A stretch of DNA of 64,000 nt from Escherichia coli (GTDB lineage: Bacteria > Pseudomonadota > Gammaproteobacteria > Enterobacterales > Enterobacteriaceae). Position 1 is the stretch's first letter. Every line of letters starts with the position of its first letter. Below are positions 1,655-36,504 of this stretch, piece by piece. The notes under the pieces were generated by a model that was given only the letters and a program-made list of their open reading frames with translations, did no database searches and was not told where the DNA came from. Location: assembly GCF_041886205.1 (NCBI RefSeq), contig NZ_CP169029.1, one strand, 5' to 3'. The position numbers and the translations under genes are program-made.

Positions 1655-1672
1655 GGGTTTAAGGAGCGCCTT

Positions 1673-13325: not shown

Positions 13326-14609
13326 TTAGTTACATTTAGCTCTAAGTGTTTGTAGTTTCATCGCAATGAGTAAAAGGACAACAAGAATAAGTGATAACGT
13401 TAAGAGAAGAGCATAGAAACCATTCCAGTGGTATATTTCTATTATTTTAGACAATGGATAGCCAGCCGCGGATGCACCAAGATATGCGAATAAACTAACA
13501 AAACCAGTAGAAGCACCAGATGCATATTTATGTGAGTTTTCAGCAGCTGCCATTGCGATCAGAAATTGTGGACCAAAGATAAAGAAGCCAGTGATGAAAA
13601 ATAACAACGAAAAAACATATTTACTATCGATAGAAACCAACCATAGACATGCAGAAGCAATGATTATACCAATTGTATAAATAACATTCATTTGAGAGCG
13701 ATTGCCCTTAAACAGAATATCTGATCCCCATCCAGCTACGATAGCACCAAAAAAGCCTCCAACCTCAAACATCATTACTGTTGCATTTGCTGTTAGCAAG
13801 TCATATTTATGAGTCTCAATCAAATACAAATTTCCCCAGTCATTGATTCCTGTACGAATAACATAAATAACTGCATATGATATTGCCAATACCCAAATTA
13901 TATTATTTTTAAATATATAATCTTTTAAGATATTCCATTGTGACAACCCTATACCTTGTTCTTCATGATTAATCTCAGCTATATCATTACGCCACTCTCC
14001 AACTGTTGGTAATCCCATCGATCTTGGTCGATCACGCAATAAGAAACATAATAAAATGCCAATAATAACAGCAATGGCCCCCGGAATAATCATGCCATAA
14101 CGCCAACCTAGCCATAAGGCAACACTACCTGATAAAATAGGGATAATTGCTCCACCGATATTATGAGATGTATTCCATATGGACCACCAGAATCCACGTT
14201 CATTTCGGGAATACCAAGTATTTAAAATTTTTGAACACGGAGGCCATCCCCATCCCTGAAAAAAAGCATTAACCATCCATAAAAATATAAACAAAGGTAT
14301 AGATGATGTTAAACCAAACAATATATTGACACATCCAGTCATTATCAATCCAATCCCCATAAACCATCTTGGATTAGAACGATCACCTATAACTCCAGAA
14401 ATAAATTTTGATGCCCCATAAGTTAGATAAAATGCCGTTCCGACCATACCAATATCTGATTTTGTAATACCTAAATCAGATAGCATCTCAGGCATTACGA
14501 AGTTAAAGCTCTTTCGTGTGAAATAAAATACAGCATATCCTATATAGCTCACAATCATTAAATGAAGTCGCCAATATCTATATGTTTTATCAATATCAGT
14601 TTTACTCAT
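13326..14609 (-). CDS. MFS transporter, organophosphate:phosphate antiporter family (UhpC/UhpT/GlpT/PgtP-like)
   Basis: About 427 aa, 12 predicted hydrophobic segments, family-typical motifs (DRSNPRWF, FFQGWGWPP); AT-rich; likely start MSKTDIDK at 14609. Confidence 0.7.
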   Translation of the reverse strand: MSKTDIDKTYRYWRLHLMIVSYIGYAVFYFTRKSFNFVMPEMLSDLGITKSDIGMVGTAFYLTYGASKFISGVIGDRSNPRWFMGIGLIMTGCVNILFGLTSSIPLFIFLWMVNAFFQGWGWPPCSKILNTWYSRNERGFWWSIWNTSHNIGGAIIPILSGSVALWLGWRYGMIIPGAIAVIIGILLCFLLRDRPRSMGLPTVGEWRNDIAEINHEEQGIGLSQWNILKDYIFKNNIIWVLAISYAVIYVIRTGINDWGNLYLIETHKYDLLTANATVMMFEVGGFFGAIVAGWGSDILFKGNRSQMNVIYTIGIIIASACLWLVSIDSKYVFSLLFFITGFFIFGPQFLIAMAAAENSHKYASGASTGFVSLFAYLGASAAGYPLSKIIEIYHWNGFYALLLTLSLILVVLLLIAMKLQTLRAKCN

Positions 14610-14956
14610 TGTTATTTCTTTGTCAGGAGACTCTGAAAATATGGACATATATAACCTCTTTTATTATGAAATATTTTCAATAATAATCCGTTAGTAATCC
14701 TATCATAGGGTAATGCCTCATCATGTTAAAATGATCACATTTATAATCATGTCAAAAAGAACAACAGAAAAAATGATTTAAAATCAATTAAATATAATTT
14801 CAACATATTGTTGTTATTAAAACATTGGTGGTAAATGTAAAGCGAGAACAGTTTGTAACAGTGACTCCTTGCAGACTAAGTTAGAGTCTCCTGATCTTAC
14901 CCAGCAATAGTGGACACGCGGCTAAGTGAGTAAACTCTCAGTCAGAGGTGACTCAC

Positions 14957-15256
14957 ATGACAAAAACAGTATCAACCAGTAAAAAACCCCGTAAACAGCA
15001 TTCGCCTGAATTTCGCAGTGAAGCCCTGAAGCTTGCTGAACGCATCGGTGTTACTGCCGCAGCCCGTGAACTCAGCCTGTATGAATCACAGCTCTACAAC
15101 TGGCGCAGTAAACAGCAAAATCAGCAGACGTCTTCTGAACGTGAACTGGAGATGTCTACCGAGATTGCACGTCTCAAACGCCAGCTGGCAGAACGGGATG
15201 AAGAGCTGGCTATCCTCCAAAAGGCCGCGACATACTTCGCGAAGCGCCTGAAATGA
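14957..15256 (+). CDS. insE: IS3 OrfA (InsE)
   Basis: Translation [32 protein letters not shown]... matches my recollection of IS3 InsE. Confidence 0.85.
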
Positions 15257-16119
15257 AGTATGTCTTTATTGAAAAACATCAGGCTGAGTTCAGCATCAAA
15301 GCAATGTGCCGCGTGCTCCGGGTGGCCCGCAGCGGCTGGTATACGTGGTGTCAGCGGCGGACAAGGATAAGCACGCGTCAGCAGTTCCGCCAACACTGCG
15401 ACAGCGTTGTCCTCGCGGCTTTTACCCGGTCAAAACAGCGTTACGGTGCCCCACGCCTGACGGATGAACTGCGTGCTCAGGGTTACCCCTTTAACGTAAA
15501 AACCGTGGCGGCAAGCCTGCGCCGTCAGGGACTGAGGGCAAAGGCCTCCCGGAAGTTCAGCCCGGTCAGCTACCGCGCACACGGCCTGCCTGTGTCAGAA
15601 AATCTGTTGGAGCAGGATTTTTACGCCAGTGGCCCGAACCAGAAGTGGGCAGGAGACATCACGTACTCACGTACAGATGAAGGCTGGCTGTATCTGGCAG
15701 TGGTCATTGACCTGTGGTCACGTGCCGTTATTGGCTGGTCAATGTCGCCACGCATGACGGCGCAACTGGCCTGCGATGCCCTGCAGATGGCGCTGTGGCG
15801 GCGTAAGAGGCCCCGGAACGTTATCGTTCACACGGACCGTGGAGGCCAGTACTGTTCAGCAGATTATCAGGCGCAACTGAAGCGGCATAATCTACGTGGA
15901 AGTATGAGCGCAAAAGGTTGCTGCTACGATAATGCCTGCGTGGAAAGCTTCTTTCATTCGCTGAAAGTGGAATGTATCCATGGAGAACACTTTATCAGCC
16001 GGGAAATAATGCGGGCAACGGTGTTTAATTATATCGAATGTGATTACAATCGGTGGCGGCGGCACAGTTGGTGTGGCGGCCTCAGTCCGGAACAATTTGA
16101 AAACAAGAACCTCGCTTAG
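15253..16119 (+). CDS. insF: IS3 OrfB (InsF, DDE transposase/integrase core)
   Basis: 288 aa; rve-type catalytic core; overlaps orfA as expected for -1 frameshift expression. Confidence 0.9.
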
Positions 16120-16248
16120 GCCTGTGTCCATATTACGTGGGTAGGATCAATAAGCATATCCAGAGGTGGTGTACAAGCCAGAGTAAAACGTGAGTTTTAT
16201 TTGGTAAAATCGTAAGCGCCCTTTGTAGAGCGTAGTGTAAGCAGGGGT

Positions 16249-17885
16249 TTACAGAACGAGGTTCCAGTGCAACAACTCTTCCACCCGGTTTGACGGCCAT
16301 TCACTGATACAGCTGATGACCTCACGCAACCAGCTTTCCGGATCCACTCCTTTCAGCCAGCATGTCGCCAGCAGGCTGTACAGGATCGCTGCGCTCTGAC
16401 CTCCCGTGTCTGAGCCGAAGAATAGCCAGTTGCGTCGCCCTAGGGCGACACAACGCAGTGTGTTTTCTGCGATATTATTGTCCAGCTCCACACGCCCGTC
16501 CTCACAACAGAGCGACAGCGATTCACGGTGGTTCAGCATATAGCTGAACGCTTTCCCCAGCTCTGCATGCACCGACAACGTCTCCATCTGTTCTGTCAGC
16601 CACGCGAACAACGCCTTCATCTGCGGGACGCTTTTCTCCTGCCGTTCTGCCAGCCGTTTCTCTGCCGGTGACCCCGGATTGTCGCTTCCACCACATACAG
16701 CCCGGCTATATGCTTCAGCGCCTCCGTTGTCATCGCTGCCGGCCGGCGAACATGCTCATCATGGATCTTTCTCCTTGCATGCGCCATGCAGGCGGCTTCC
16801 CTGATCCGCCCTGACTCATAAAGCGCATCGTAACCGGCAAACGCATCTGCCTGCAGGATACCTTTCCACTCCGCCAGATGCCCCTGCGGGTGACAGCCCC
16901 GACGATCTGCACTGTAAGCGAACCACGCCGCTGGCGGAGCCGCTGAACCGCGGTTCCGGTCATCGAGCACATACACCCACAGCCGGCCCGTCCGGGTTTT
17001 ACCGCTCCCCGGCTCCAGCACTTTCACCGGGGTGTCGTCCGTGTGCTATTTGCTGCTCTCTCTCCATCACGTAGCGGTTCAGCGCATCGTGCAGGGGACT
17101 GAGTCGTTCTGCGGTCATCGCCACCCACCGGACCAGCGTGTTTCGGCTCAGTTCCACACCCTGGTGGCTGAAGATGACGGACTGACGATGCAGCGGGGTA
17201 TGGTCACAGTATTTACTCACCAGGATGCGGGCCAGCAGGTCCGCACCGGCCACACTGCGGGTCAGCGGTTTCGGGGGAGTGGTGCCTGGACTATCACATC
17301 GCAGCGGCTGCAGGCCAGCTTCGGGCGCACCGTTTCGATGACCTTAAAGGAGCTGCGGATTATCTCCAGTTGCTCTGAGACGGTTTCACTCATAACCTTC
17401 AGGTCGCCGCCGCATTTCGGGCAGACAGTCTCTGTCGGGGGGATGCGCCGGGTTTCACGTGACAGGTCTGCCGGCAGTTTCTGACGACGGGAGCGGCGTG
17501 CAGGCCGGTCCTGTGGGGCGACCGCCACCGGGGGCTCTGCCTGCTCAACCGTACCGACAGCGGGCTCATCGTCCTGCAGACAGCGTTTTGCCGCTGCAAG
17601 ACGGTTTTCCAGCTCAGCCAGCCGCTTCTCTGCCTGGCGGATTTTATTTTCCAGTTTATTGCGGCTTTTCTCCGAACTCTGCCCGAACAGCATCCGCCGC
17701 AGCTTATCAAGCTGTGCCTTCAGCCGTTCGATTTCCTGTTCGTAGTCGGCAACCTGTCCGGCGTACTGGCGCAGCCGGGCCTGCTGCTTTTTCATGGTAA
17801 CATTTAGCTGTTCCACAGCAACCTGCTGCTGACGCAACAGGGCTTTCAGCTGGTCGATATTATCAGGAAGCGGGATATTTTTCAT
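16249..17885 (-). pseudogene. IS66-family tnpC pseudogene (multiple frameshifts)
   Basis: Four consecutive minus-strand ORF pieces (17262..17885, 16999..17253, 16617..17027, 16249..16620) together resemble one TnpC. Confidence 0.7.
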
Positions 17886-17904
17886 CCTGCCCAGGTAAAG
17901 GGAT

Positions 17905-18252
17905 TCAGATCCGCAGACTATTACTTTTCGACCTTCCCGGTTGCATCCAGACTATACCCTCCAGCAGCATGGCAAGCTGTGCCGGGGTCAGATACACCTT
18001 TCCCTCCCGGGCGACCGGCCAGATGAACGTTCCCCGTTCAAGTCTTTTCATATAGATGCAGAGCCCTCCGCTGTCTGCCCACAGGAGTTTTACCAGCCTG
18101 CCCCTGCGTCCCCGGAAGATGAAGAGATGGCCGGAGATCGGGTCATCCTTCAGGGTGTTCTGGACCTTTGCGGCCAGACCGTTGAAGCCGTTTCTCATGT
18201 CGGTGATGCCGGCCACGAGCCAGATAAGGCAGCCAGCCGGAAGCGTAATCAT
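17905..18252 (-). CDS. IS66-family TnpB (orfB)
   Basis: 115 aa, close homologue of the orfB at 9686..10033. Confidence 0.8.
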   Translation of the reverse strand: MITLPAGCLIWLVAGITDMRNGFNGLAAKVQNTLKDDPISGHLFIFRGRRGRLVKLLWADSGGLCIYMKRLERGTFIWPVAREGKVYLTPAQLAMLLEGIVWMQPGRSKSNSLRI

Positions 18253-18659
18253 ACTGTGCTCCTGCCGGCGAGTTCGCGGACGATCCGGAGCTGTTTCTCC
18301 GGGTCAGGATTGTCGAGTGTGAGGGTGCCGTGGCGAAGCGTCAGCGAGCAGGTTGACCCCGTTCCCTGACCAGACAGAGCCGGAGACTGCCGGGTGGTGG
18401 AGTCAGGTACAATTTCGACCGGAAGTGCCGCAGGAGGGGATACAGATGGAACGGGAGCTGGCAGCCGGCGGAATACCCGGCCTTCTTTACGCCACAGACG
18501 GATCCATTTAAAAAGGACGTTATCGTTGACCCCGTGCGTACGGGCAATATCCGCAACATTGGCGTCCGGTCGGGTAGCCAGTTCGACCAGCCTGAGTTTG
18601 AATTCGCTGGAATAAACGCGGCGGGGTTCGGTCCGCCAGGCCCGGGTTTCAGATTCCAT
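18249..18659 (-). CDS. IS66-family orfA
   Basis: 136 aa; FKLRLVELATRPDANVADIARTHGVNDNVLFKWIR motif. Confidence 0.75.
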   Translation of the reverse strand: MESETRAWRTEPRRVYSSEFKLRLVELATRPDANVADIARTHGVNDNVLFKWIRLWRKEGRVFRRLPAPVPSVSPPAALPVEIVPDSTTRQSPALSGQGTGSTCSLTLRHGTLTLDNPDPEKQLRIVRELAGRSTV

Positions 18660-18796
18660 AACTTAGATGTCCGTCTGTTTCAGATGGGCGTCTAAGTTAG
18701 CGTTTTCACTCGACTGCCTGAAGACGTCTCTGACGGGTCGCTTACGTAAAATCAACCACGGGAAGCTCAACGGTGAAGTACTTTACCAGTTGATCA

Positions 18797-19090
<294 letters not shown>

Positions 19091-19288
19091 AATCGTGATC
19101 ATTTTTTGTTGACCACTACAAACATTTATGTTTTTTTATGCGAATGAAGTTATCCTTCCTTTCTGCCTGGTTGTCTCATTCATACAGATATCTGGCAGAC
19201 ATAACTTGTTGTGAAAAGTAGATGCTTACCGCATGTCTGATGCACTTTTGTATAAAGGCAAAGTATTTCAGCAAATGGAAATGATTAT

Positions 19289-19789
19289 ATGAACAACACA
19301 GACTCATTAGAAAAAATAATCAAACATCAACAAAACAACGATCCAAAATACCCCTGCCAGGAGCATCTGTTGATACAACTCTGTATCCGCGTAAACAAAA
19401 AAATACAGGATAATATATCGAGTTTACTCAGTGGATATGGAATAAATTATTAAACATATATGGTTCTTACCATATTATCCACAGCAGATAATCATTGTCT
19501 TTCGCCCTCAAAGATAAGCAGAGAACTCCAGTTTACCAGAACAAACATTACCCGCATTACAGATTTTTTAGAAAAAGCAGGGTATATAGAAAGAACTGAT
19601 AGCAGAGAGGATCGCCGTGCTAAAAAAATCAGTCTGACATCAGATGGTCTGTCCTTTATTCAGAACGTCAATATTGCACAAAGTCTGCACCTGAAAGAAA
19701 TCTGGAGCCCGCTGACCCATGCAGAGTGTGAACTGTTTGAAGACATTAATAAAAAATTACTGACGCATATTGCTGATGTGTGTCCCTAA
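19289..19789 (+). pseudogene. MarR-family regulator (PapX/SfaX-like) with in-frame TAA at 19451-19453
   Basis: Single frame reads MNNTDSLEKIIKHQQNNDPKYPCQEHLLIQLCIRVNKKIQDNISSLLSGYGINY*TYMVLTILSTADNHCLSPSKISRELQFTRTNITRITDFLEKAGYIERTDSREDRRAKKISLTSDG...; winged-helix MarR signature with DRR motif. Confidence 0.5.
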
Positions 19790-20460
19790 AGCATGAAGAG
19801 TTTGAGGAAACTGAAGAGCTTCAAGCAATGAATCATATAATAAGCAGGCATAAGAGCGACATAACTACAGGCGGAAACAGCGATACAAGAAAACTACTGG
19901 TTTAGGTCACAATGCAGCAAAATGACAAACTCATACGACGGTTCTTGTGAATGATGCGGTGCCTAACCCGCAAATATCAGCATGATTCACCGTAGAACTT
20001 ACTGATACAAGATAACGTAATGATTGAGCTTATCTCATATGGGGTAACGCGCAATAAAAATAGTTGCAACATTGTTTATAATTGTTCAATCTATCTTATT
20101 TTTATTAATATAGTTGAGCTTCTCAACACATTACTTTAAAGTTCTACACTAAAGAGAACAAAATTATCACAACGGATATGGAGATACTTTCAGGCCAGTC
20201 AAACCGGTTTAACTGATATGGTTGAATACACGCTTGACTATGAATGGTTTATGGTATTCAGTCCCGATAACTATGGGGCCAGTTTTGTGTAGCTTTCAAC
20301 TTTAGTTGTTTTCACTCATCATAGATGATGCAATAAAAACATCATTTTCTCACGCATTGCATATTGCTGGTATATCCATATCGCATGTAGCACAGAGTGT
20401 TGACTAAATTATAGAAATATGATTTTTTATCTCATTGACAAAGAAGTTAAGGACCGAGAG

Positions 20461-20886
20461 ATGAGTTTTAATACCACACACGAGAAATCTGAAATCTATC
20501 GTCTGATCCTTAGAGAAAGTGAACTCATTACAGCATGGGTAAAATCTGGAGACACGCCGTCAGCAGTTTACGGAAAACTACGTGATAAAAACCCGGATAT
20601 AATCTTTTCGATAAATGGCTTTTTATATAACCTACGTAACTTTAACTATGCACTATATGAAACAGCCACAAAGAACAAAAGCAAAACAAGGTTAATAATA
20701 CTCAACCATTATGATGATATTGCATCAGCTATCCGTGCTGGTCATACGCTTAAAGGTGTTTACAAACTCGTATGCCCACATATAACATATAACTGTTTTA
20801 TTACACAACTCAGGAAAACCTATCCTGACCTGCATTCTCAGGGTAAAGCGAATCGCAGCAACAAAAACAGAATAATAGCTAACTGA
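20461..20886 (+). CDS. Hypothetical protein (141 aa), AT-rich orphan
   Basis: ORF with AAGGA Shine-Dalgarno 9 nt upstream of ATG at 20461; no recognisable motif. Confidence 0.4.
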   Translation: MSFNTTHEKSEIYRLILRESELITAWVKSGDTPSAVYGKLRDKNPDIIFSINGFLYNLRNFNYALYETATKNKSKTRLIILNHYDDIASAIRAGHTLKGVYKLVCPHITYNCFITQLRKTYPDLHSQGKANRSNKNRIIAN

Positions 20887-21194
20887 TGATATATAAAATG
20901 TTTTACACTATATCTTTTATTGTAACTAAAATTACTTTGATCCTACAAAAAGAAAGGTAAGAAGGGGTTTAAAAGATCATCACGAGACAACTGTTCTAGT
21001 TTTTTAAGCCCCCCATTAATTTAAAAAGCAGATACCAAGCATGAATAAGATTATATAAATTTCATTACATACAATTCATTACTGTCCGGACAAATATTGT
21101 TGTTTATAAAATATAACACACCAATTGTAAAGCTGTGAGCTCATGCTACTTTTAACAGAATTTTTAAACAAGAGGGAATGGGAGACCATTAATA

Positions 21195-21380
21195 ATGCAA
21201 GAAACAAAAACCAACCGCAAATCTAACTGTACAAACTGCAATATTCCTGGATGTAAGCAAACCCCATTTTGCAAGTACTGTCGTAGTGTCAAAGACATAT
21301 CCGGAGCTAGACGCTCTTTATATCTCCATGTAGCAATATTCATCATTATTATTGTACTTACTATTATTTCAGTACTTTGA
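21195..21380 (+). CDS. Hypothetical small Cys-rich protein with hydrophobic C-terminal segment
   Basis: 61 aa; CTNCNIPGCKQTPFCKYC cysteine cluster followed by a hydrophobic stretch (VAIFIIIIVLTIISVL); Shine-Dalgarno-like GGGAG upstream. Confidence 0.25.
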   Translation: MQETKTNRKSNCTNCNIPGCKQTPFCKYCRSVKDISGARRSLYLHVAIFIIIIVLTIISVL

Positions 21381-22053
21381 CAAGCCTTTTTGCACCAACT
21401 GATGTACACAATCAGATTTCAGCCTGTCCGTAATAATTATATTTGATATTACATTAACGCTCTTTAACTGTAGGACAGCACAGCGTAAATTGTTGAATAG
21501 TTCATTTAAAAAATCATAAGGATAAAAAACCAACACTTAAAACATTGTTCTTTTTCAAGAACACATATTTAAATAAAATAACAAACCGCTACCAACTTTA
21601 AAACATTAAAAAAACTGTGAGAGATTACTCTGAAAAGAGTTCATAGCTTTTTAATAAACCATATAAAGTAAACAATACATATGTTAACCCCCCAGAAAAA
21701 ACGTGACAAGAACATAACACCATAAGCAGATACCATATACACGCACACCACCATAACGAATTGGTCACTGGTTCATGACAAACCGTTCATAATTGCTAAA
21801 AATATTAATACACCATCATATAGACTTTCATGTCTAATGAAAAAATATTTATACTCCAGAATAGCCACAACCTTTATAAAATTCAGCTCATTAGAATATA
21901 AATGCATATGCCAATGAACAGAATACATTCTCATCCTTATTGAGGAACATACTGCCTGAGAGAAAAATCATCACTCAGACTTTGAAATAACATTGTCGAA
22001 TTCATATTATACAAAAGGGGAGTCATTCCCCTTTTTTAGCTTAGGTACTCAGT

Positions 22054-22875
22054 TTATAAGGAAATGGCAGAATACTCTGTGTTTATCCATGAGTGTTCCT
22101 TTTCCCAGGTGAATATCCATTTACGTACTGGTCCGGCCATCACGTTAAGGTAATAACTGTCATACCCGGCCATCGTCGCCACCGGGTGGTACCCTTTCGG
22201 CACCATGACCACGTCACGGTTATAGACCGCCATACATTCATCAAGTGTGCGGTCATCGGTATACACCCGCTGCATGCAGAACCCCTGTTCCGGGTTGAGG
22301 CGATGGTAATAGGTCTCCTCCAGATAGCTCTCCTGAGGCGGGTTATTCGTATCGTGTTTATGGCTCGGGTACGAACTGGTACAGCCTTCGTTGGTCCAGA
22401 CCTCGACGACCAGCAGGCTGTCAGCGGGCTTGTCTTCCGGCAAAATATTATGCACATAACGCTGGTTGTGGCCGTTACCGCGCGCTTCGCCATCGATATC
22501 CTGAGGTGCAATCAACCGCGTCGGGTATGTCCCTTTTCCCGGAGCGGTACAGACTGCCAGCTCCAGTTTCGTCAGCGCCTTCACCTGCACTGCCTCCTGC
22601 GGGGTGACGTAAACTGCCCAAGGTTTGATGCGCTCGAACGGGCTCATCCGCTCCCCGATATCAGTAAACTGTGCAGAAGGAGTGCTGATGAAAGCGCGCC
22701 CGGCCACCAGCACCAGACAGCGCTCTTCACTGACAGCGGGCAGCGTCAGTTGCTGCCCTTCCTCAAGTTCATAGGCCTCAAAGCCAACATATCCCCATCC
22801 GGCGCTTTCCGGCGTGACAGACTGAGTCCGCCCCTCAGCGTTCGGCTGTTGCCAGCGTGATAACAAACGTGACAT
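22054..22875 (-). CDS. iolB: 5-deoxy-glucuronate isomerase IolB
   Basis: 273 aa, KduI/IolB cupin-like; located in the iol operon. Confidence 0.8.
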   Translation of the reverse strand: MSRLLSRWQQPNAEGRTQSVTPESAGWGYVGFEAYELEEGQQLTLPAVSEERCLVLVAGRAFISTPSAQFTDIGERMSPFERIKPWAVYVTPQEAVQVKALTKLELAVCTAPGKGTYPTRLIAPQDIDGEARGNGHNQRYVHNILPEDKPADSLLVVEVWTNEGCTSSYPSHKHDTNNPPQESYLEETYYHRLNPEQGFCMQRVYTDDRTLDECMAVYNRDVVMVPKGYHPVATMAGYDSYYLNVMAGPVRKWIFTWEKEHSWINTEYSAISL

Positions 22876-22884
22876 GTCACCTCC

Positions 22885-23811
22885 TCAGATAAGCCCGGCG
22901 TCGCGCGCCAGGCGGCTCAGATTGTTATATCCCAGACGGGCGTAGGTCAGCGGATGGGCGATCGCCGGGTCCTGTTCAGCCTCCACCACCAGCCAACCGT
23001 GATAATCCTGCGTTTTCAGCAGTTGCATAATCGGCGGATAATCCACGCAGCCGTCACCCGGCACGGTAAACACGCCGCTCAGCACCGCGTCGAGGAAGCT
23101 GGTTTTACGGTTTTTGACGTCCGCCAGCACGTCGGCGCGCACATCTTTGCAGTGAACATGATTGATGCGCGATGCCCATCGCTGTGCCACCGCCAACGGA
23201 TCGGCCCCGGCAAAGGTCAGGTGGCCGGTATCCAGCAGTAAACCAACCTCCTCACCCGTGTGGAGCATCAGGTTGTCCACGTCTTGAGCGGACTCAATCA
23301 CCGTGCCCATATGATGGTGGTAAGCAATCTGTACCCCCTGTTGCTGCGTATAGCGGGCGAACACGGTGAGCTTCTCACCATACTCTTTCCAGCATTCCTG
23401 CGGGAAACGTGGGCGCAGGTGAACCGGCGTCTGCTGCTCACCGTGAATGCAGCCACTCACTTCCGCAAAAACCAGTACTTTTGCACCCAGCTCTCGCAGC
23501 AGCGTCAGATGCGACTGCACAGCAGCAATCTCGTCCTCTACACTGCGTTCCAACAGGCGGCCGGAATACCAGCCGGAGACCAACTGCAGGTCGTGGCGCT
23601 GCAAAATGGGGCCGAGCAGGCGCGCTTCTCGCGGGAATTTATTGCCCAGTTCGAAGCCGGCAAAACCGGCCTCTTTCCCTTCACTCAGGCAGGTCTCCAG
23701 AGATGTCTCCGCGCCCAGTGAAGGCAGATCATCGTTCGTCCACGTCAGCGGGTTGATGCCCAGTTGTACACTCATTGTCGTCTCCATTATGCGTGTCCGC
23801 GCTCGCGCCAC
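22885..23811 (-). CDS. iolE: Inosose dehydratase IolE (likely start MSVQLG at 23775)
   Basis: Xylose-isomerase-like TIM barrel; sequence GINPLTWTNDD typical of IolE. Confidence 0.8.
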   Translation of the reverse strand: MARARTRIMETTMSVQLGINPLTWTNDDLPSLGAETSLETCLSEGKEAGFAGFELGNKFPREARLLGPILQRHDLQLVSGWYSGRLLERSVEDEIAAVQSHLTLLRELGAKVLVFAEVSGCIHGEQQTPVHLRPRFPQECWKEYGEKLTVFARYTQQQGVQIAYHHHMGTVIESAQDVDNLMLHTGEEVGLLLDTGHLTFAGADPLAVAQRWASRINHVHCKDVRADVLADVKNRKTSFLDAVLSGVFTVPGDGCVDYPPIMQLLKTQDYHGWLVVEAEQDPAIAHPLTYARLGYNNLSRLARDAGLI

Positions 23812-25691
23812 CAGGCGATAAGCTGCAGGTAGTTGTCCCGGATGCGCGCCACCAACTGCGCATCGTCAATATCGTATTTCAGCCATGCGCGGGAGGCATC
23901 GCCAAACAGCGTGCGCCCCACGGCGAAGCCTTTCACCAGCGCCTGCCCCGCGGCAGCTTTGAAGTCGGCACGCAACTGTTCCGCCGGAGCATCCAGACCG
24001 AGGATCACCACGCCGCGGCAGTGCGGGTCCCGGCGCGCGATAATCTCGCTCAGTGCCGTCCAGCCTTCGGCGGAGAGCGGCGGCAGTTTCCACCAGTCGG
24101 GGTAAATGCCAAGGTTGTAGAAGCGGGAAATGGCACGCAGATAAAGTTCGTCACTGCGCGGCATAGTGGCGGGTAATATCACCTCCAGCAGCAGTTCATG
24201 TCCGGACTGACAGCAGGCGTGGTACACCTCGGCGATTTTCTGCTCCTGCTCCAGACGCAAGCCGTGGGCATCTTCCGGATGGAAAAAGACCAGGCACTTC
24301 ACCACATGCTCCTGCGGCCAACTGATAAGCTGGGTACCAATGTTACCGTGCTCCATCTCCAGCGGACGCGAGCCTGGCAGTTCAATGGGACGACCAATCC
24401 ACCACCCTTCGCCGGTAATGGCGTTCAGCGCATCCTGACCAAAGGTGCCATCGCACAGCAGGCCGGCTTTCCCCTCCAGCCCGGCAGAGCTTGCCGCCTC
24501 TCGGCTGGCCTGCAGGATCAGCTGTTTCAGCGCCGGAATACGCTTAAGCGACGCGCCGCACTGCAGCGCCATATCTTCCAGTTGACTGCGGTGATCGAAC
24601 GCCATCACGCACAGCTCCGGCCATTCGCGGCGGCGGGTGGTCACCCGGTGCAGATGGTTAAGACGCGGGTCAATGTCCGGGCGCGGAACGAGCGCGGCGC
24701 GGGAGAGGTAATCATCCAGCTCAATTTTGCTCGGCATCGCCGGTGCACAGCCGTGGCGCGAGACCACCAGCGCCCCACAGGCGTTGGCGTAGCGGCACGC
24801 CTGTTCCCAGCCCTCGTCGTTCAGGTAACCGCGCAGCAGGCCAGACATAAACGCATCTCCCGCGCCAAGGACGTTAAGCACCTCCACACGCACGCCGGTC
24901 ACCGTCAGGCCGTCATCCAGCCGAGGTGGAATGGCATCGGTATACACCGAACAGCCCAGCGCGCCGCGCTTGCAAACCAGTGTCGCCTTGCTGACGTGGC
25001 GCACCTGCGCCAGCGCCTGCAACGTATCGGTGCTGCCCCCCGCAATGTGAAACTCCTCTTCGGTGCCGACAACGACGTCGAAAAGGTGTAGCACCTCCTG
25101 AAGTTCACGGGTAACCTGTTCGGCAACGATAAAACGCGTTTCGCCGTCTCCTAGAGAGGTTAGTCCCCACAGCACTGGACGGTAGTCGATGTCCAGCACC
25201 GTGCGCACGCCGTGACGGCGGGCGTAATTCAGCGCCGTCAGCACCGCCTCGCGGGTCTGCGGGTGAGAAAGGTGAGTCCCGGTGATGGCAATACACCGTG
25301 CGGAGGCAATGTAGCTTTCGTCCACATCGCTGGCAGTAATCGCCATATCCGCGCAGTTATCGCGATAAAAAATCAGAGGAAAGGTGTCCCGGTCTTTAAT
25401 GCCGAGTAGCACCAGCGCCGTGAGGCGTTCTTTATCGGTGATCAGATGGCTGGTATCGCAGCCCACCTGGTTTAACTCTTCCCGCAGGAAGCGCCCCATA
25501 TGTTCATCGCCAACGCGCGCCAGCATTGACGAGCGTAAGCCCTGACGCGCGGTACCGTACGCCACGTTGCCGGACGAGCCGCCGAGATATTTGGCGAAGC
25601 TCGACACATCCTCCAGGCGGGCACCAATCTGCTGGCTGTAGAGGTCTACCGCCACGCGGCCCATGCATATCACATCAAACTGCTTTTCCAC
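23787..25691 (-). CDS. iolC: 5-dehydro-2-deoxygluconokinase IolC with C-terminal DUF2090/aldolase-like extension
   Basis: 634 aa; N-terminal PfkB-type sugar kinase (GAGDAF motif) plus ~300-aa C-terminal domain. Confidence 0.75.
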   Translation of the reverse strand: MEKQFDVICMGRVAVDLYSQQIGARLEDVSSFAKYLGGSSGNVAYGTARQGLRSSMLARVGDEHMGRFLREELNQVGCDTSHLITDKERLTALVLLGIKDRDTFPLIFYRDNCADMAITASDVDESYIASARCIAITGTHLSHPQTREAVLTALNYARRHGVRTVLDIDYRPVLWGLTSLGDGETRFIVAEQVTRELQEVLHLFDVVVGTEEEFHIAGGSTDTLQALAQVRHVSKATLVCKRGALGCSVYTDAIPPRLDDGLTVTGVRVEVLNVLGAGDAFMSGLLRGYLNDEGWEQACRYANACGALVVSRHGCAPAMPSKIELDDYLSRAALVPRPDIDPRLNHLHRVTTRRREWPELCVMAFDHRSQLEDMALQCGASLKRIPALKQLILQASREAASSAGLEGKAGLLCDGTFGQDALNAITGEGWWIGRPIELPGSRPLEMEHGNIGTQLISWPQEHVVKCLVFFHPEDAHGLRLEQEQKIAEVYHACCQSGHELLLEVILPATMPRSDELYLRAISRFYNLGIYPDWWKLPPLSAEGWTALSEIIARRDPHCRGVVILGLDAPAEQLRADFKAAAGQALVKGFAVGRTLFGDASRAWLKYDIDDAQLVARIRDNYLQLIAWWRERGHA

Positions 25692-25703
25692 GTTGAACCC
25701 TCT

Positions 25704-26837
25704 TCAGACAATGTCATTCACGTTCAGCCAGAGGCCCTGCTGGTGTGAGAGTGCGATGGCATCCAGCACACGCGAGACCTTCCAGCCCTCTTCGAAGTCC
25801 GGCCACATCGGTGCGTCGGTGGCGATGCCGTCTACCAGATCACGCACTTCCACCGTTTTTTGATCGTTAAAGCCGATACCATGACCTGCGCCCATGCAAA
25901 ACGCGCCGTAATCCGGGTGTGCCGGACCGACCAACAGTGTCCGGAACCCCTGACGGTTCACCGGATCATCATGCAGATAGAGCTTTATCTCTGCCATCCG
26001 CTCTTGGGTAAAACTGATCGCTCCTTTGGTACCAGTAATGACGTATGACAGCCCCATCTTGCGGCCGCAGGCGACACGGGAAGTTTCAATGACGCCCTGC
26101 GCCCCGCCCGCAAAGCGCACCATCGCGTGGGCCTGATCTTCATTTTCCACGGTGACCATTTCCGACGATCCGGCCTTTGCCGGACGTGCCGGTACCACAA
26201 TTTTCAGATCGCCACAAACCTGCTCAATCTCTCCCACAAGATACTGGGCCATATTGACGATATGTGCCGCCAGGTCACCCAGAGCCCCCAGTCCGGCGGT
26301 CTCTTTAAAACAGTGCCAGTGAATAGGGGAAAGCGGGTCGGCCATATAGTCTTCGTTGTGGGTTCCGTAGAAGTGGATCACCTCACCAATTTCGCCGCGC
26401 GCAATAATCTCTTTCGCCAACTGTGCCGTCGGGTTTTTCATGTAATTGAAACCCACCAGCGTTTTCACCCCTGCCCGCTTCGCAGCGTCGACCATCTCAC
26501 GCGCGTCGTGGGCATTCAGTGCCAGCGGCTTTTCCGAATAGACGTGCTTGCCGTGGCGGATCGCCTCCAGCGCCATCTCTTTGTGAAGATGGTTAGGGGA
26601 GCAAATATCCACCACATCAATGGCCGGGTCGACCACGAGCACCCGCCAGTCTCCGGTTGAGCGATTGAAGCCAAACGCCTGCGCGCGTTCTGCCGCCAGC
26701 GCCGGATTCACCTCAGCCACCATCTCGCGCACCAGTTTGCCGCGCAGATTGAACACCGTCGGTGCCTGGGCATAGGCAATGGCATGCGCCTTGCCAATAT
26801 ACCCGGTGCCAATCAATCCAATACGAACCTCTTTCAT
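25704..26837 (-). CDS. Gfo/Idh/MocA-family oxidoreductase (second inositol dehydrogenase-like enzyme)
   Basis: Rossmann motif IGLIGTGYIGKAH; ~377 aa from MKEVRIG. Confidence 0.75.
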   Translation of the reverse strand: MKEVRIGLIGTGYIGKAHAIAYAQAPTVFNLRGKLVREMVAEVNPALAAERAQAFGFNRSTGDWRVLVVDPAIDVVDICSPNHLHKEMALEAIRHGKHVYSEKPLALNAHDAREMVDAAKRAGVKTLVGFNYMKNPTAQLAKEIIARGEIGEVIHFYGTHNEDYMADPLSPIHWHCFKETAGLGALGDLAAHIVNMAQYLVGEIEQVCGDLKIVVPARPAKAGSSEMVTVENEDQAHAMVRFAGGAQGVIETSRVACGRKMGLSYVITGTKGAISFTQERMAEIKLYLHDDPVNRQGFRTLLVGPAHPDYGAFCMGAGHGIGFNDQKTVEVRDLVDGIATDAPMWPDFEEGWKVSRVLDAIALSHQQGLWLNVNDIV

Positions 26838-26845
26838 CGTGATCC

Positions 26846-27874
26846 TCACAGTGCGCCGCGACGGCTCTTGGCATAGGTGTCGAATGCCACCGCCAGAACG
26901 ATAATTAATCCGGTGATAATTTGCTGGTAGTAGGCCGAGACGTTCATCAGTACCAGGCCATTAATCAGAATGCCCATGATGATGGAGCCGATGATAGTGC
27001 CGCCGATGCGCCCATATCCCCCCATCAACGACGTGCCGCCAATAACCACCGAGGCAATAACACGCAGCTCAAAGGAGATCCCGGCAACCGCCTCAGCGCT
27101 CCCCAGACGAGCGCTCAGGATGAAGCCCGCCAGCCCCGCCAGACAGCCAATCAGCACATAGACGCTAACCAGCACACGCTTCACGTTTACCCCAGCCAGA
27201 CGTGCCGCCTCCGGGTTGCCACCGATGGCATAGACGAAGCGCCCCCAACGGGTTTTATGCAGTGCCAGATAACCACCAATGGCAACGATGGCGAAGATCC
27301 AGATCGGAATGGAGATGCCGAGCAATTCCCCTCGTCCCCACCAGCGATAACCCTGATCGAAGCCGGCAATCGGCGCACCGTCGTTAATCACGAGCGTCAG
27401 ACCACGCCAGATGGTCATCCCGCCAAGGGTGACGATGAACGGTGGTAGGCGCAGGCGGGTGACGCCCAGACCGTGCAGGAAGCCAATCGCTGTACCCATG
27501 GTCAGACAAATCCCCAGCCCAATCAGCCAGCTCATACCGCCCCAAGCGTTCGGATCGACTGTGGTGAAATTGTCGCCTTTGATCACGTACGCCGCTGTCA
27601 TGGCGCACACTGCCAGAATAGAGCCCACGGAGAGGTCGATCCCAGCGGTCAGAATGACGAAGGTCATCCCCACGGCCATGATCCCGTAGATGGAGACTTC
27701 GGTCAGGATGTTGAAAATATTGCGTTCAGAGAAAAAATTACTGTTCTGCGACTGAAAGAAGATCAGCAGCAGGATCATGAAAATCAGTACCCCGAAGCGC
27801 TCGAAGAAGGCAATGGGATCGATGCGTCCGGCGCGTTTTACCGGGACCTGCGTTTTAGGAATCATCTGCGTCAT
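26846..27874 (-). CDS. Sugar ABC transporter permease (ribose/monosaccharide type)
   Basis: 342 aa, multiple hydrophobic segments, start overlaps upstream gene. Confidence 0.8.
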   Translation of the reverse strand: MTQMIPKTQVPVKRAGRIDPIAFFERFGVLIFMILLLIFFQSQNSNFFSERNIFNILTEVSIYGIMAVGMTFVILTAGIDLSVGSILAVCAMTAAYVIKGDNFTTVDPNAWGGMSWLIGLGICLTMGTAIGFLHGLGVTRLRLPPFIVTLGGMTIWRGLTLVINDGAPIAGFDQGYRWWGRGELLGISIPIWIFAIVAIGGYLALHKTRWGRFVYAIGGNPEAARLAGVNVKRVLVSVYVLIGCLAGLAGFILSARLGSAEAVAGISFELRVIASVVIGGTSLMGGYGRIGGTIIGSIIMGILINGLVLMNVSAYYQQIITGLIIVLAVAFDTYAKSRRGAL

Positions 27875-27885
27875 GAGAAACTCCG

Positions 27886-29433
27886 TTATGCCGCGTTCAG
27901 GGCGTTGTGGTTGATAGCCATCATCGTCATCAGCCGTTCTTCGTTAGCGTCGTCACCGTGGATCTCGCCAGTTAACCGGCCTTCACTAAGGGTGATGATC
28001 CGGTCAGACACCGCCATCACTTCAGGCAGATCGGAGGAGATCACGATCACCGCCACGCCCTTTTTCGCCATATCAAACAGCACCTGGTGCACTTCCGATT
28101 TGGTTCCAACGTCGATGCCACGTGTCGGCTCATCGACAATCAACACCCGTGGATTGAGCGCCATGCAGCGCGCGAGGATAACTTTCTGCTGGTTGCCGCC
28201 AGAGAGCTTACGCACCTCCTGCGTGCTGTTGACCATTTTGATCTGCAGCGCCTGGCGGTAGGACTCAATCAGGTCGTCCTCTTTGCGGGTATTCACAAAC
28301 CAGCGCCACTGCAACAGCGAGGAGAGGCAGGAGAGCGACAGGTTGTCGCGAATCGACAGACCCAGCACCGCCCCCTCTTTTTTGCGATCTTCCGGCACCA
28401 GCGCCAGCCCTTGCTCCAGCGCATAAAGTGGGTCACGCGGCTGGTACGGCACGCCGTCCAGCTCAAAGCTGCCGGTGGTAAAGGCGTCGGCGCCAAACAG
28501 GCAGCGCGCTACCTCAGTACGACCAGCCCCCACCAGCCCAGCGATACCCAGAACTTCCCCTGCATGGACGTGAAAACTGATGTCATGCAGGGCGATGCCG
28601 TGTGGATCCAGCGGCGGTTTTTCCCGGCTTAACCCCTTCACCGACAAACGGACAGGTTTGTCTTCATGGTGGGTTTCGCTGGCAGGGCGGCGGTTAAAGG
28701 CCACATCACGCCCTACCATCAGGCGGATCAACTGCTCTACGTTCGTCTCCGTCACTGCGCCGGTGCCGGTGAAACGGCCATCCTGGAAAACGGTGAAACG
28801 ATCGCAAAGCTGGAAAACTTCATGCAGACGGTGAGTAACGTAAATAATGCTCACGCCGCGGTTTTTAAGCTCCCGCACCACGCGGTGCAGGCTTTCCACC
28901 TCGCTGTCACTCAGGGCGGCGGAGGGTTCATCCATGATGATCAGCCTGGCATTGAGGGTCAGCGCCCGGGCAATCTCCACCATCTGCTGCTGGGCCACGC
29001 TCAGACGGGCGACTGGCGTGGTGGGTGCGACATTCAGTTGCAGATAATCGAGAATCACCTGCGCTTCCTGATTGACCGCTTTTTCGTCGACGATCAGGTT
29101 ACGTTTACGCGGTTCGCGTCCGAGAAACATGTTTTCCGCAACGGTCATATTGGGCAGCAGGTTGAATTCCTGATAGATGGTGATAATGCCCTTGTTCTGC
29201 CGTTCTACCGGGGAGTCGTCCACCGGCAGCGTTTCGCCATTGAACCAGATCTCCCCGCGCGTTTGTGGCTGTGCGCCCGCGAGTGCCTTCAACAGCGTGG
29301 ATTTCCCAGCGCCGTTTTCGCCCAGCAAAGCGTGAATTTCACCCGTGCCGACGGTGAGCTGGGCGCTGCTCAGCGCCCATACGCCGGAAAAGCTTTTTGC
29401 CAGGTCGGTTACTTTCAGTAAGGGTTGCGACAT
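27886..29433 (-). CDS. Sugar ABC transporter ATP-binding protein (duplicated ABC domains)
   Basis: 515 aa; Walker A GENGAGKST, signature LSGGNQQK. Confidence 0.85.
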   Translation of the reverse strand: MSQPLLKVTDLAKSFSGVWALSSAQLTVGTGEIHALLGENGAGKSTLLKALAGAQPQTRGEIWFNGETLPVDDSPVERQNKGIITIYQEFNLLPNMTVAENMFLGREPRKRNLIVDEKAVNQEAQVILDYLQLNVAPTTPVARLSVAQQQMVEIARALTLNARLIIMDEPSAALSDSEVESLHRVVRELKNRGVSIIYVTHRLHEVFQLCDRFTVFQDGRFTGTGAVTETNVEQLIRLMVGRDVAFNRRPASETHHEDKPVRLSVKGLSREKPPLDPHGIALHDISFHVHAGEVLGIAGLVGAGRTEVARCLFGADAFTTGSFELDGVPYQPRDPLYALEQGLALVPEDRKKEGAVLGLSIRDNLSLSCLSSLLQWRWFVNTRKEDDLIESYRQALQIKMVNSTQEVRKLSGGNQQKVILARCMALNPRVLIVDEPTRGIDVGTKSEVHQVLFDMAKKGVAVIVISSDLPEVMAVSDRIITLSEGRLTGEIHGDDANEERLMTMMAINHNALNAA

Positions 29434-29484
29434 CAGCCTGCTCCTTATTTATGGGGAGCCGCCCGTACGGCGGCTCCAGACAAA

Positions 29485-30414
29485 TCAGTTACCGGCCTCA
29501 GCAATACGCTCAGCCTGTTGCAGGTTCTCTTTGGTGATCAGCGTCGGCGGATAGTCCGCACCGGTGATAGTTTTTTTCTCACGCACGTTAGCCACCAGTT
29601 GGCTCATCGCCGTGGTCACCGCAAAGCCGGGACGCTGATCCGCCGTAACCGCCAGCCAGCCGTCGCGCACGCGGGCCAGTGCTTCCGGTACCGCATCAAA
29701 ACCGGTGACCAGGATTTCACCCGGTTTCACACCCTGACTCTGCAGCGCTTCAATCGCCCCCAGCGCCATATCATCGTTGGCAGAGAGGATCACCTGAGGA
29801 CGTTTTGGCAGCGACGGCAAAACGCTTTCGACAATGCGCATCCCTTCCGAGCGCATCCAGTTGCCGGTCTGATCGGCGACGATCTTGTACATATCCCCGC
29901 CAGCCTTCAGGCTGTCGCGGATCCCTTTGGTGCGTTCAATGTTGGAGGAGGAACCCGGTTGACCGGTCAACAGAATGATCTCCGCGCCGTTGGGGAATTT
30001 GGTTTTGACGAAGTCGCCAATCGCCTGGCCGCCCTTGTAGTTGTTGGCACCAAAGTGCGGCACTTTTTTCTGGCTGTCGACAGAGCGGTCAAGCGTAACG
30101 ACCGGCAGCTTCGTATCCTGAATTTCATCTACCGCACTGGAGACCGCGTTCACATCGTTCGGGGAGACAATAAAGCCCTGCGCACCACGGGTGATGGCGT
30201 TTTCCAGGTCAGCCACCTGCTTCGGTGAGCTGCCCTGACCGTCCAGTACCTGAAGTTTCACCCCCATCTCTTTTGCGGCTTTCACCGCCGTGCGCTGCAT
30301 GTGAACTTCAAACGGCATGGCCAGGTTTGGCGTACTGAAAACAATTTGCTCGTTTTCGGCTATGGCGGCCCCGGATGTCATGGCGATTAGGGCGGCTAAG
30401 ATCAGTTTTTTCAT
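29485..30414 (-). CDS. Periplasmic sugar-binding protein of the ABC importer (putative inositol-binding)
   Basis: Signal peptide MKKLILAALIAMTSGAAIA; ATG at 30412-30414; the longer upstream ORF extension is rejected. Confidence 0.8.
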   Translation of the reverse strand: MKKLILAALIAMTSGAAIAENEQIVFSTPNLAMPFEVHMQRTAVKAAKEMGVKLQVLDGQGSSPKQVADLENAITRGAQGFIVSPNDVNAVSSAVDEIQDTKLPVVTLDRSVDSQKKVPHFGANNYKGGQAIGDFVKTKFPNGAEIILLTGQPGSSSNIERTKGIRDSLKAGGDMYKIVADQTGNWMRSEGMRIVESVLPSLPKRPQVILSANDDMALGAIEALQSQGVKPGEILVTGFDAVPEALARVRDGWLAVTADQRPGFAVTTAMSQLVANVREKKTITGADYPPTLITKENLQQAERIAEAGN

Positions 30415-30445
30415 TATTATGTCTCTCTGTGTAGGGTTGTTGTGT

Positions 30446-31432
30446 TTAGAGGACGATCTCACGCTGGCAACGCAGTGATTCCAGCGCTTTATCCGCGAGG
30501 TACAGCGCACGTTCACCATCATCGCCGCTGCAATCAGGCACCGCTTCGCCGCGCAGAACCGCAACAAAGTGCTCCCATTCCGCTGCGTAAGCGGATTTGT
30601 AGCGTTGCAGGAAGAAGTGTTCCGGCAGCGCGCTGGTGCAACCCTGTTTGCCGTAGTGCTGCACCTGGTTTTCAAGGATATTGCCCGCGCACAGCAGCCC
30701 TTCGGAACCGTGTAGCTCCAGGCGCTGGTCGTAGCCGTATGAAGAGCGGCGACTGTTGACGATGGTCGCCATCGCGCCGGAGGCATATTTCAGAACGATA
30801 AATGCGGTGTCGATATCTCCCGCTTCGCCAATCGCCGGATCCACCAGATTGCTGCCCTGGGCATACACCGACACCGGCTCTTCACCCATGATGAAGCGTG
30901 CCATGTCAAAGTCGTGGATGGTCATATCACGGAACATGCCGCCGGAAACACGCACGTACACCGCAGGCGGTGGAGACGGATCGCGGGAGATGATCAGCAG
31001 TGATTCCGGTTTGCCGATACGCCCGGCCTGAGTGTCGGTTTTCACGCGACGGAACTGTGGGTCAAAGCGGCGGTTAAAACCGATAAACAGCGGTACGTCA
31101 TACTCTTTGACCACTTTCAGGCAGTCGCGTACGCGGGCAAGATCAAGGTGTACCGGTTTTTCACAGAAAATGGCTTTGCCGTAACGGGCGGCCATTTCAA
31201 TCAGATCCGCGTGGGTGTCGGTCGCGGAGGCGATCAATACGGCATGAACGTTCGGGTCGGTCATCGCCTCATCCAGGCTCTGCTGGCGCGCCTGATACTG
31301 TGTCGCGAGACGCGTGGCGAACTCCTGATTCGGGTCTACCACAGACCAGAGCGTGGTCGCACTATGGCTGGCGATGTTAGCTGCATGTACCTGGCCAATT
31401 CGGCCAGCGCCCAGTAAAGCAATGTTAAACAT
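30446..31432 (-). CDS. iolG: myo-Inositol 2-dehydrogenase IolG (Gfo/Idh/MocA family)
   Basis: 328 aa; N-terminal Rossmann motif ALLGAGRIGQVHA. Confidence 0.8.
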   Translation of the reverse strand: MFNIALLGAGRIGQVHAANIASHSATTLWSVVDPNQEFATRLATQYQARQQSLDEAMTDPNVHAVLIASATDTHADLIEMAARYGKAIFCEKPVHLDLARVRDCLKVVKEYDVPLFIGFNRRFDPQFRRVKTDTQAGRIGKPESLLIISRDPSPPPAVYVRVSGGMFRDMTIHDFDMARFIMGEEPVSVYAQGSNLVDPAIGEAGDIDTAFIVLKYASGAMATIVNSRRSSYGYDQRLELHGSEGLLCAGNILENQVQHYGKQGCTSALPEHFFLQRYKSAYAAEWEHFVAVLRGEAVPDCSGDDGERALYLADKALESLRCQREIVL

Positions 31433-31626
31433 AACGGCTCCCGGTGTTGATGAATGCGGTGAACTAACGACACTACAAATAAAACATTTATTTCATTTTT
31501 ATAAATAGTGAAAATTATATTTTGAGTGACAGTTAACACTTTTGAGATGTATTAGATAAATTTTGTTATCAATCTCACAACGCCGAGGAAGATATGTCCC
31601 TCCATTACAAGGGGGGGAGGGAATAA

Positions 31627-31656
31627 AAACTGTACCATCCCCTCTCCCGTTGGGAG
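31627..31656 (-). terminator. Perfect 14-bp-stem palindrome, probable terminator after iolD
   Basis: CCATCCCCTCTCCC-GTT-GGGAGAGGGGATGG; T-rich run follows on the minus strand. Confidence 0.5.
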
Positions 31657-31716
31657 AGGGGATGGGTGAGAGGAAAAAAGAAAAATGAAATGAAAATTTC
31701 GTTACGACAGGAAAAC

Positions 31717-33642: not shown

Positions 33643-33653
33643 AAAACCCCCTG

Positions 33654-35159
33654 TCAGCCCAGAGTCGGCATGGAGAACGCTGCACCTGTCTCCTGCTGCA
33701 TTTCCGGCCAGCGTGCAGTGATGGTTTTCATTCGGGTGTAGAAACGCACGCCATCGTTCCCGTGAACATTGAGCGCGCCAAAAATGGAACGTTTCCAGCC
33801 ACCGAAACAGTGGAATGCCATTGGCACCGGGATCGGCACGTTGACCCCCACCATACCCGCCTGCACCTCTTCACAAAAGCGGCGTGCGCAGCCACCGTCA
33901 CGGGTGAAAATGGCCGAGCCATTACCATATTCGTGTCGGTTAATCAGATCCACCGCGCTGGCGTAATCTGCTACGCGCACCACAGAAAGCACCGGTCCGA
34001 AAATTTCTTCTTTATAGATGGTCATCTCCGGGGTGACGTTATCGAACAGAGTCGGCCCAACGAAATAGCCCTGCTCGTGCCCTTTCACGCTGAGGCCACG
34101 CCCGTCCACACGCAGGTTAGCCCCCTGAGCTTCGCCACTGTCGATATAGCCCAACACTTTGCTGCGGTGTGCGGCGGAGATCAGCGGCCCCATCTCGTTT
34201 TCTGGCGTCTGGTTCAGGCCAGGTCCGACGCGCAGCGAAGCGATCTTTTTTTCCAGCCGGGCGCAGAGTTCATCAGCCGTTTTATCGCCAACCGCCACCA
34301 CCACGGAAAGCGCCATGCAGCGTTCTCCTGCCGCACCATAAGCTGCGCCCATTATGGCGTTTGTCGCCATATCCATATCGGCATCCGGCATTAAAATGCA
34401 GTGGTTTTTCGCACCGCCGAGCGCCTGACAGCGCTTACCGTGGGCGGACGCAGTCAGGTACATGTATTCGGCAATCGGTGTTGAACCGACAAAACTGACG
34501 GCCTGCACGCGCGGGTCGGTCAGGAGCACATCAACGGATTCTTTATCGCCCTGCACCACGTTGAATACGCCGTCCGGCAGGCCTGCCTCTTTCAGCAGTT
34601 TCGCCAGCGCGAGCGCCAGAGACGGATCTTTTTCCGACGGTTTCAGCACGAAGGTGTTGCCTGTCGCCAGAGCTATCGGGAACATCCACATTGGCACCAT
34701 CGCCGGGAAGTTAAACGGCGTGATCCCGGCGCAGACCCCGAGCGGCTGCATCAGTGAGTGGCTGTCGACACCTGTGCCAACGTTCGCAGAGTGTTCGCCT
34801 TTTTGCAGATGTGGGATGCCGCAGGCGAATTCTACCACTTCCAGACCACGGGTCAGTTCACCTACTGCATCTGAGAAGACCTTACCGTGTTCTTCACTGA
34901 TAATACGGGCCAGACGCACCATATTCTCTTCAAGCAACGCTTTGAAGCGGAACATCACACGCGCGCGCTTGAGTGGAGCAAAACGTGCCCACGCGGGAAA
35001 CGCCAACTGTGCTGCGGCAATCGCCTGTTCGGTTTCCTGTGCCGTACTCATCACCACCTGGCGAATCTGCTCGCCAGTGGCCGGGTTGAAGATAGCCTGA
35101 ATGCGCTGGCCTGAACCGGTGACACATTCGCCGTGAATAAAATTCGCTACCGTCTCCAT
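33654..35159 (-). CDS. iolA: Methylmalonate-semialdehyde dehydrogenase IolA/MmsA
   Basis: 501 aa aldehyde dehydrogenase with catalytic Cys context and FTGST-like motif. Confidence 0.85.
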
Positions 35160-36310: not shown

Positions 36311-36504
36311 TAACCAATGAACTCCTCCCCCGAGTCCATATAAGAGTAAATGATTCGGTGCCAGTAGCGATACAGACTTCAGATTGAATATCAACTGTAC
36401 TGCTATCTCCCTAAAAGGTCATGCCCCATGTGAGCGTACAACGAGAGCCTTAATCCTTAATAGCGAAGAAGATTTCTCTAGTAGGTGGTAATGTAACCCA
36501 GATA

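Follow-up and report, generated by a model that had tools for sequence, protein, structure and literature searches.

The IS3 element and its flanks

The window, meaning the whole analysed stretch of 64,000 nucleotides of Escherichia coli DNA, contains one complete IS3 copy situated between an orphan uhpC-like gene and an IS66-family element (Table 1). The copy starts with TGATCTTACCC at 14892 and ends with GGGTAGGATCA at 16149. Its length of ~1258 bp, imperfect terminal inverted repeats, TG start and CA end are those of IS3, and also the two-ORF organisation is present, orfA (HTH) overlapping orfB (DDE/rve) with a -1 programmed frameshift according to the annotation. An AAAAG motif found by sequence in the overlap is presumably the -1 programmed frameshift site. 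Genome ZYB62 is 100% identical to the window over 14400-16650, and the matching copy there bears the RefSeq name 'IS3-like element IS3 family transposase, programmed frameshift'.

Table 1. Coordinates of the IS3 copy, its flanks and the neighbouring features in the window.
Feature	Position	Strand	Details
Orphan uhpC-like MFS gene	13326..14648	-	MFS_1, E=1e-57
Left flank TCC	14889..14891		Secondary junction; IS3-free relatives continue as ...GAGTCTCC / TTCTAAA(A)TTAGACGG... (L004, L006, L007)
Complete IS3	14892..16149	+	1258 bp, intact ends, orfA/orfB; sole IS3 in the window
Left terminal inverted repeat	14892..14930	+	Imperfect, ~39 bp; from alignment of both IS3 ends
orfA	14957..15256	+	99 aa; HTH_Tnp_1, PF01527, E=5e-10
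AAAAG slippery motif	15219..15223	+	In the orfA/orfB overlap
orfB	15253..16119	+	288 aa; DDE integrase core: rve PF00665 E=2e-27, rve_2, HTH_21
Right terminal inverted repeat	16111..16149	+	Imperfect, ~39 bp; from alignment of both IS3 ends
Right flank ATA	16150..16152		Surviving copy of the 3-bp duplication made at insertion (from empty versus filled sites)
IS66-family element	16212..18745	-	2534 bp, both termini (GTAAGCG... / ...CGCTTAC)
Module of ~21.8 kb	14892..36673		IS3, IS66 element, MarR, iol myo-inositol cluster, MurR/RpiR, IS2-like remnant
Right module boundary	36557..36898	-	Crossover zone 36557-36674, in the IS2-like orfA remnant; terminus at 36898

Compared with the K-12 copies IS3B-E, the window IS3 has the same termini base for base, and 1255 of its 1258 bases are equal, the differences being at IS3 nt 200, 777 and 1003. 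The T-to-C change at nt 777 (window 15668) replaces Leu by Ser in OrfB (DITYLRT to DITYSRT), four residues past an Asp that we take to be probably the first catalytic D. Each of the four window-type copies that were read has this change, the other IS3 copies examined all lack it, and the nt 1003 variant is likewise private to the window-type copies.

The IS3 copy is flanked by TCC and ATA, as the original prediction had stated, and the interval given there (14889-16152) equals the element with 3 bp on each side; the identical 3-bp direct repeats of a simple insertion are absent. That IS3 normally makes 3-bp repeats, as was also claimed, agrees with the flanks ATA/ATA in CE0026f and 33F4, ATC/ATC in K-12 IS3B and GTC/GTC in K-12 IS3E. 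The lack of a matching duplication held up in a boundary-slip check, in which no shift of 1-2 bp equalized the sequence ...GAGTCTCC before the left end and ATAAGCAT after the right end. An artefact, either misplaced IS3 boundaries or a duplication lost through point mutation, was given a negligible probability: the termini are those of K-12 IS3, the length is exactly 1258 bp, the right end was placed exactly between 16149 and ATA by comparison of empty and filled sites in other genomes, and the left flank as a whole, far beyond the 3 bp, has no relation to the ancestral one. On these grounds both boundary error and decay of the duplication were rejected.

The IS66-family element, 62 bp from IS3, retains its own target duplication in contrast to the neighbouring IS3: the 8-bp sequence GTAAAATC is intact at 16204-16211 and 18746-18753. 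The tnpC of this element is split into four ORFs, and the corresponding element of CE0026f has an internal deletion of ~950 bp. On the other side of IS3 lies the uhpC-like gene, for which the annotations of JML285 and 33F4 record a frameshift. Its neighbourhood varies among at least three island contexts, with PerC/pap genes in one, F17 fimbrial genes in another and the window arrangement in a further one. JML285 also includes a separate 1,867-bp record beginning inside the uhpC-like gene, which is probably an assembly leftover.

Several other features were observed in the serX-linked island of the window and its surroundings. Positions 1-5484 hold a defence-gene cluster with darG, a type I restriction R subunit and an M48 peptidase, and in ZYB62 darT lies directly upstream of darG. 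At ~6160-6167 the window has an empty site where ZYB62 carries an additional ISEc23 (IS66 family) of ~2.5 kb, which shows that the window does not come from ZYB62 itself; an 8-bp overlap of the alignment blocks suggests that this ISEc23 has an 8-bp duplication. Past the IS2 terminus, at ~36900-37190, the window contains a truncated gene named 'TOTE conflict system archaeo-eukaryotic primase domain' in the RefSeq annotation of ZYB62. A primase-like protein on a serX-integrated element, the IS-excision enhancer IEE, is known from O157. At 47136-48763 the window lacks ~10.9 kb present in ZYB62 and K-12 (ymdE/ycdU, IS3D, dgcT, pgaABCD), which is replaced by ~1.6 kb of REP-like repeats and a 228-aa ORF (47529-48215), the similarity returning at phoH. 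With pgaABCD absent, the poly-GlcNAc biofilm operon appears to be missing in the window strain.

Original insertion site and derived forms

The arrangement uhpC-IS3-IS66 of the window was found in five of the 5,426 complete E. coli genomes that formed the comparison set: ZYB62, ZYB39, C10, C11 and JML285. The empty site, ...CTACTGATA / AGCATATCC..., was present in three genomes. In two of these, 400660 and GPEC349-628, the sequence was read (...GGCCTACTGATA / AGCATATCC..., the left part ending in CTGATA), and in the third, GPEC1176, the site was identified from matches to both flanks alone. In the empty site, a VasL-gene remnant abuts a 62-bp spacer, which is followed by the IS66-family element. 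The filled site, ...CTACTG-ATA-IS3-ATA-AGCATATCC..., with a perfect 3-bp duplication, was found in four genomes and read in CE0026f and 33F4. Altogether, 15 genomes carry the right flank. The right junction, IS3 / ATAAGCATATCC, is identical in combination with three left flanks, TCC, ATA and GAC.

In the right flank (2-2.9 kb), the window-type genomes differ from the other IS3-bearing genomes by 9-13 substitutions and from the empty-site genome 400660 by 37-47, giving the grouping ((window-type, other IS3-bearing), empty site). This grouping, together with the site comparison, points to a single insertion at ATA behind all the IS3-bearing forms. The site comparison shows that IS3 first inserted between the VasL-gene remnant and the IS66-family element, duplicating ATA, and that the right junction of the window (IRR / ATA) is the original one, the left junction having been exchanged after the insertion.

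A derived form of the same insertion was found in genomes related to those with the filled site. In CE0026f and 33F4, the island is located at tRNA-Phe (pheU), and outward from the left end of IS3 follow the VasL remnant, a C5 methyltransferase, an ATPase, a response regulator, ISSso4 and a truncated IS3 (nt 1-449). The truncated copy is in direct orientation, 10,512 bp away, and abuts a UpaE-like autotransporter remnant. CE0011b, strain 11 and EC15 carry the order autotransporter-GAC-full IS3-ATA-IS66, which is exactly the product expected if the truncated and the full IS3 had recombined and the 10,512 bp had been deleted. The IS3 of strain 11 and EC15 (L014/L015) has the full haplotype of the ancestral-site copy. 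The IS3 of CE0011b (L003 4002-5259) is a mosaic, K-12-like at nt 200-612 and ancestral-like at nt 1214, the K-12-like stretch extending past the 449-nt truncated partner of CE0026f. Such differing IS3 haplotypes with the same GAC/ATA flanks point to more than one homologous event or to later gene conversion.

The sister genomes thus show directly that this IS3 can lose its matching duplication by a homology-driven exchange. Like the window copy, the IS3 of CE0011b, strain 11 and EC15 has the identical right junction, has lost its left flank and duplication, and lies beside a deletion. Unlike in the window, the partner (IS3 nt 1-449) and the deleted DNA of the sister case are visible in CE0026f and 33F4; no partner or intermediate of the window case was found in the sampled genomes.

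Replacement of the left flank and the iol module

In the window, the left end of IS3 interrupts the upstream region of uhpC after 243 bp (14649-14891). The IS3-free relatives KC-Dl-1, 33F4 and CFS3292 are continuous across this breakpoint, reading ...AGTTAGAGTCTCC / TTCTAAA(A)TTAGACGGAG..., so that the window has lost the DNA that normally follows TCC. The comparison also shows that in the window lineage everything left of the IS3 left end has been replaced by the orphan-uhpC upstream region. DNA of the VasL side was limited to seven genomes, and all five window-type genomes lack it. In a chimeric-query search, 33F4, 32F4, 33E and CFS3292, none of them window-type, were the sole records that had their best match on the TTCTAAA/potE side. 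The failure to detect either lost side in the window-type genomes points to a non-reciprocal event, a deletion or a replacement.

These two absences also bear on an inversion or reciprocal translocation between two IS3 copies, which would have left a reciprocal hybrid elsewhere in the genome and was judged extremely unlikely. Inverted IS copies that recombine likewise yield hybrid flanks, and the module is in the serX island in the window type versus pheU in the ancestral-type genomes. However, the reciprocal copy would read ...CTACTGATA-IS3-TCCTTCTAAA... in a window-type genome, and no reciprocal junction was found in the 5,426 complete E. coli genomes searched. The second IS3 of ZYB62 (L011 15212-16469) was rejected as a partner, its flanks CAC/AAA being identical to those of K-12 IS3D. 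With neither lost flank detected in window-type genomes and no reciprocal copy, inversion was rejected. The original prediction had proposed an IS3-mediated deletion or inversion: deletion, or replacement, is in accordance with the exchanged left flank, and the inversion part fell with the two undetected sides. The comparison with other E. coli genomes suggested there recovered the ancestral arrangement, both the empty and the ATA/ATA sites, but not the partner IS3.

That the left end of IS3 became attached to a DNA break already present, without the staggered cuts of the transposase (the break-insertion idea of Ngan et al.), was considered very unlikely. Such an event would give a duplication-less copy beside a deletion, and it has been put forward for IS of other families (PMC11708052). 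However, the IS3 was already resident with a normal duplication, so that no new insertion needs explaining, and the authors of PMC11708052 explain all their IS150 cases as ordinary adjacent deletions. Inversion, break capture, a decayed duplication and misplaced boundaries are all regarded as unlikely or excluded.

Two mechanisms were weighed further, and on these the opposite edge of the iol module has a bearing. From the first base of IS3 to ~36673, the window and the pheU-island module of CE0026f share ~99.4% identity. Mismatches between the two number one in 36000-36673 and 35 in 36674-36871, and beyond that the homology is zero. Identity to CE0026f in the IS2-like remnant drops sharply from ~99.9% to ~82%, and a switch as sharp as this in IS2-like sequence is the signature expected of a homologous crossover. 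In ZYB62, which is of the window type, both sides of the module are in an island between serX/ghrA and ycdU; its location in CE0026f and CE0011b is a pheU island. The module of ~22 kb thus has IS homology at both edges and resides in different islands in different strains.

The flank exchange after insertion and its non-reciprocal outcome emerge from the site comparisons, and the mechanism that we infer for them, with a probability somewhat above one half, is RecA-type homologous recombination of IS3 with a further IS3 sequence at the TCC site. A partner IS3, full or partial, located at TCC upstream of uhpC would have recombined with the resident IS3, by one of two routes. The first would be a deletion between two directly repeated IS3 copies. 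In the second, two crossovers, this one in IS3 on the left and another in IS2-type sequence on the right, would together have placed the ~22 kb iol module into the serX-linked island. The resulting hybrid IS3 would have one flank from each parental insertion, and a matching duplication would consequently be absent. Homologous recombination is favoured because of the sister precedent, the crossover at the other module boundary and the changed island context. Three further observations support it or the post-insertion exchange that it presupposes: IS3-free relatives have uninterrupted sequence across the left breakpoint, other genomes contain both the empty site and the perfect ATA/ATA filled site, and one and the same IRR / ATAAGCATATCC junction occurs with the flanks TCC, ATA and GAC.

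A donor IS3 with its own duplication at TCC would read ACGTGGGTAGGATCA-TCC-TTCTAAA(A)TTAGACGG. A chimeric 703-nt query of the donor junction, in which the right end of IS3 (GGGTAGGATCA) is followed by TCC-TTCTAAA, matched no place with a coverage of at least 80% in the 5,426 complete E. coli genomes. The same junction had no matches in the JGI metagenomes and none in a one-genome-per-species set, which is a weak test with one genome each. No plasmid copy of the uhpC-upstream left flank was found either, the sole match being the 1.9 kb JML285 fragment, and the window itself contains no second IS3 or IS3 fragment that could have been the partner. As regards the flanks of a hybrid IS, the right half is documented by the ATA site, and for the left half no IS3 with its own duplication at TCC was found. 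The window IS3 and the ancestral-site copy have seven differences spread over nt 372-1214, which at 0.56% equals the density in the flanking module. With copies at least 99.4% alike and differences evenly spread, a crossover switch inside the window IS3 was not locatable from the SNP haplotypes. The even spread would be equally compatible with a wholly orthologous IS3, as predicted by an adjacent deletion.

An adjacent deletion mediated by the IS3 transposase (intramolecular or one-ended) was the main alternative and was considered rather unlikely. The left end of IS3 would have been joined to TCC / TTC farther along the molecule, removing the intervening DNA with the VasL remnant, sparing the right junction and making no duplication. 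That one end of the IS3 has its original flank and the other a new one is in accordance with this, and so are the failure to detect either lost side in window-type genomes, the unsuccessful search for a partner IS3 in complete E. coli genomes, metagenomes, the species set and plasmids, and the uniform divergence of IS3 from the ancestral copy at the level of the module. Furthermore, of the 83 IS events in the Lenski LTEE, 14 were duplication-less IS150 cases (PMC11708052). However, the deletion would have to start from uhpC...GAGTCTCCTTCTAAA contiguous with VasL-CTACTGATA-IS3, and no sampled genome has the uhpC and VasL sides on one molecule in the right order: in 33F4 they are ~1.5 Mb apart, and CE0026f lacks the uhpC copy. 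Against it are also the visible homologous partner in the sole documented flank change at this IS3 and the other module boundary, which is a homologous crossover and no transposase joint.

The iol module might tentatively be regarded as a cassette shuttled between the pheU and serX islands, with the full IS3 and the IS2-type sequence serving as portable homology arms. The duplication-less IS3 would then be the scar of a cassette exchange and not that of a local deletion.

Comparison with known IS rearrangements

IS copies with hybrid flanks are a textbook result of IS-IS recombination or adjacent deletion. Also the duplication-less IS3 of the window is an ordinary, already known phenomenon and involves no new mechanism, since only two of the five IS3 copies of K-12 MG1655 (L019-L023) have a perfect 3-bp duplication, IS3B (ATC/ATC) and IS3E (GTC/GTC). 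Of the others, IS3A is 3 nt short at the left end, and the flanks are ATC/ACC in IS3C and CAC/AAA in IS3D. IS3D, between ymdE and dgcT, has the flanks CAC/AAA in both K-12 and ZYB62, which indicates an old shared copy without duplication. The main value of the present case lies in annotation and in the history of the island, IS3 marking the left edge of the ~22 kb iol module. The empty, the filled and two derived states have all been sampled, so that one IS3 insertion can be seen to have seeded repeated flank exchanges.

The K-12 copies (IS3A-IS3E) resemble the window IS3 in the length of 1258 bp, the identical termini and the orfA/orfB organisation, with three nucleotide differences. The window copy differs from them in its private SNPs at nt 777 and 1003 and in its locus, the uhpC/IS66 junction in a serX-linked island.

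IS-IS recombination and adjacent deletion are standard causes of missing duplications (PMC11708052). The 14 events of the LTEE, from three populations, were adjacent deletions by IS150, a member of the IS3 family, without duplications (PMC11708052). They resemble the window case in that an IS3-family element stays intact in place, one side is lost and the copy is left without a duplication. Unlike the window case, they were followed through time, as stepwise deletions on one molecule (PMC11708052). In the window, another island context supplies the new flank, and a different IS contains the second boundary of the module.
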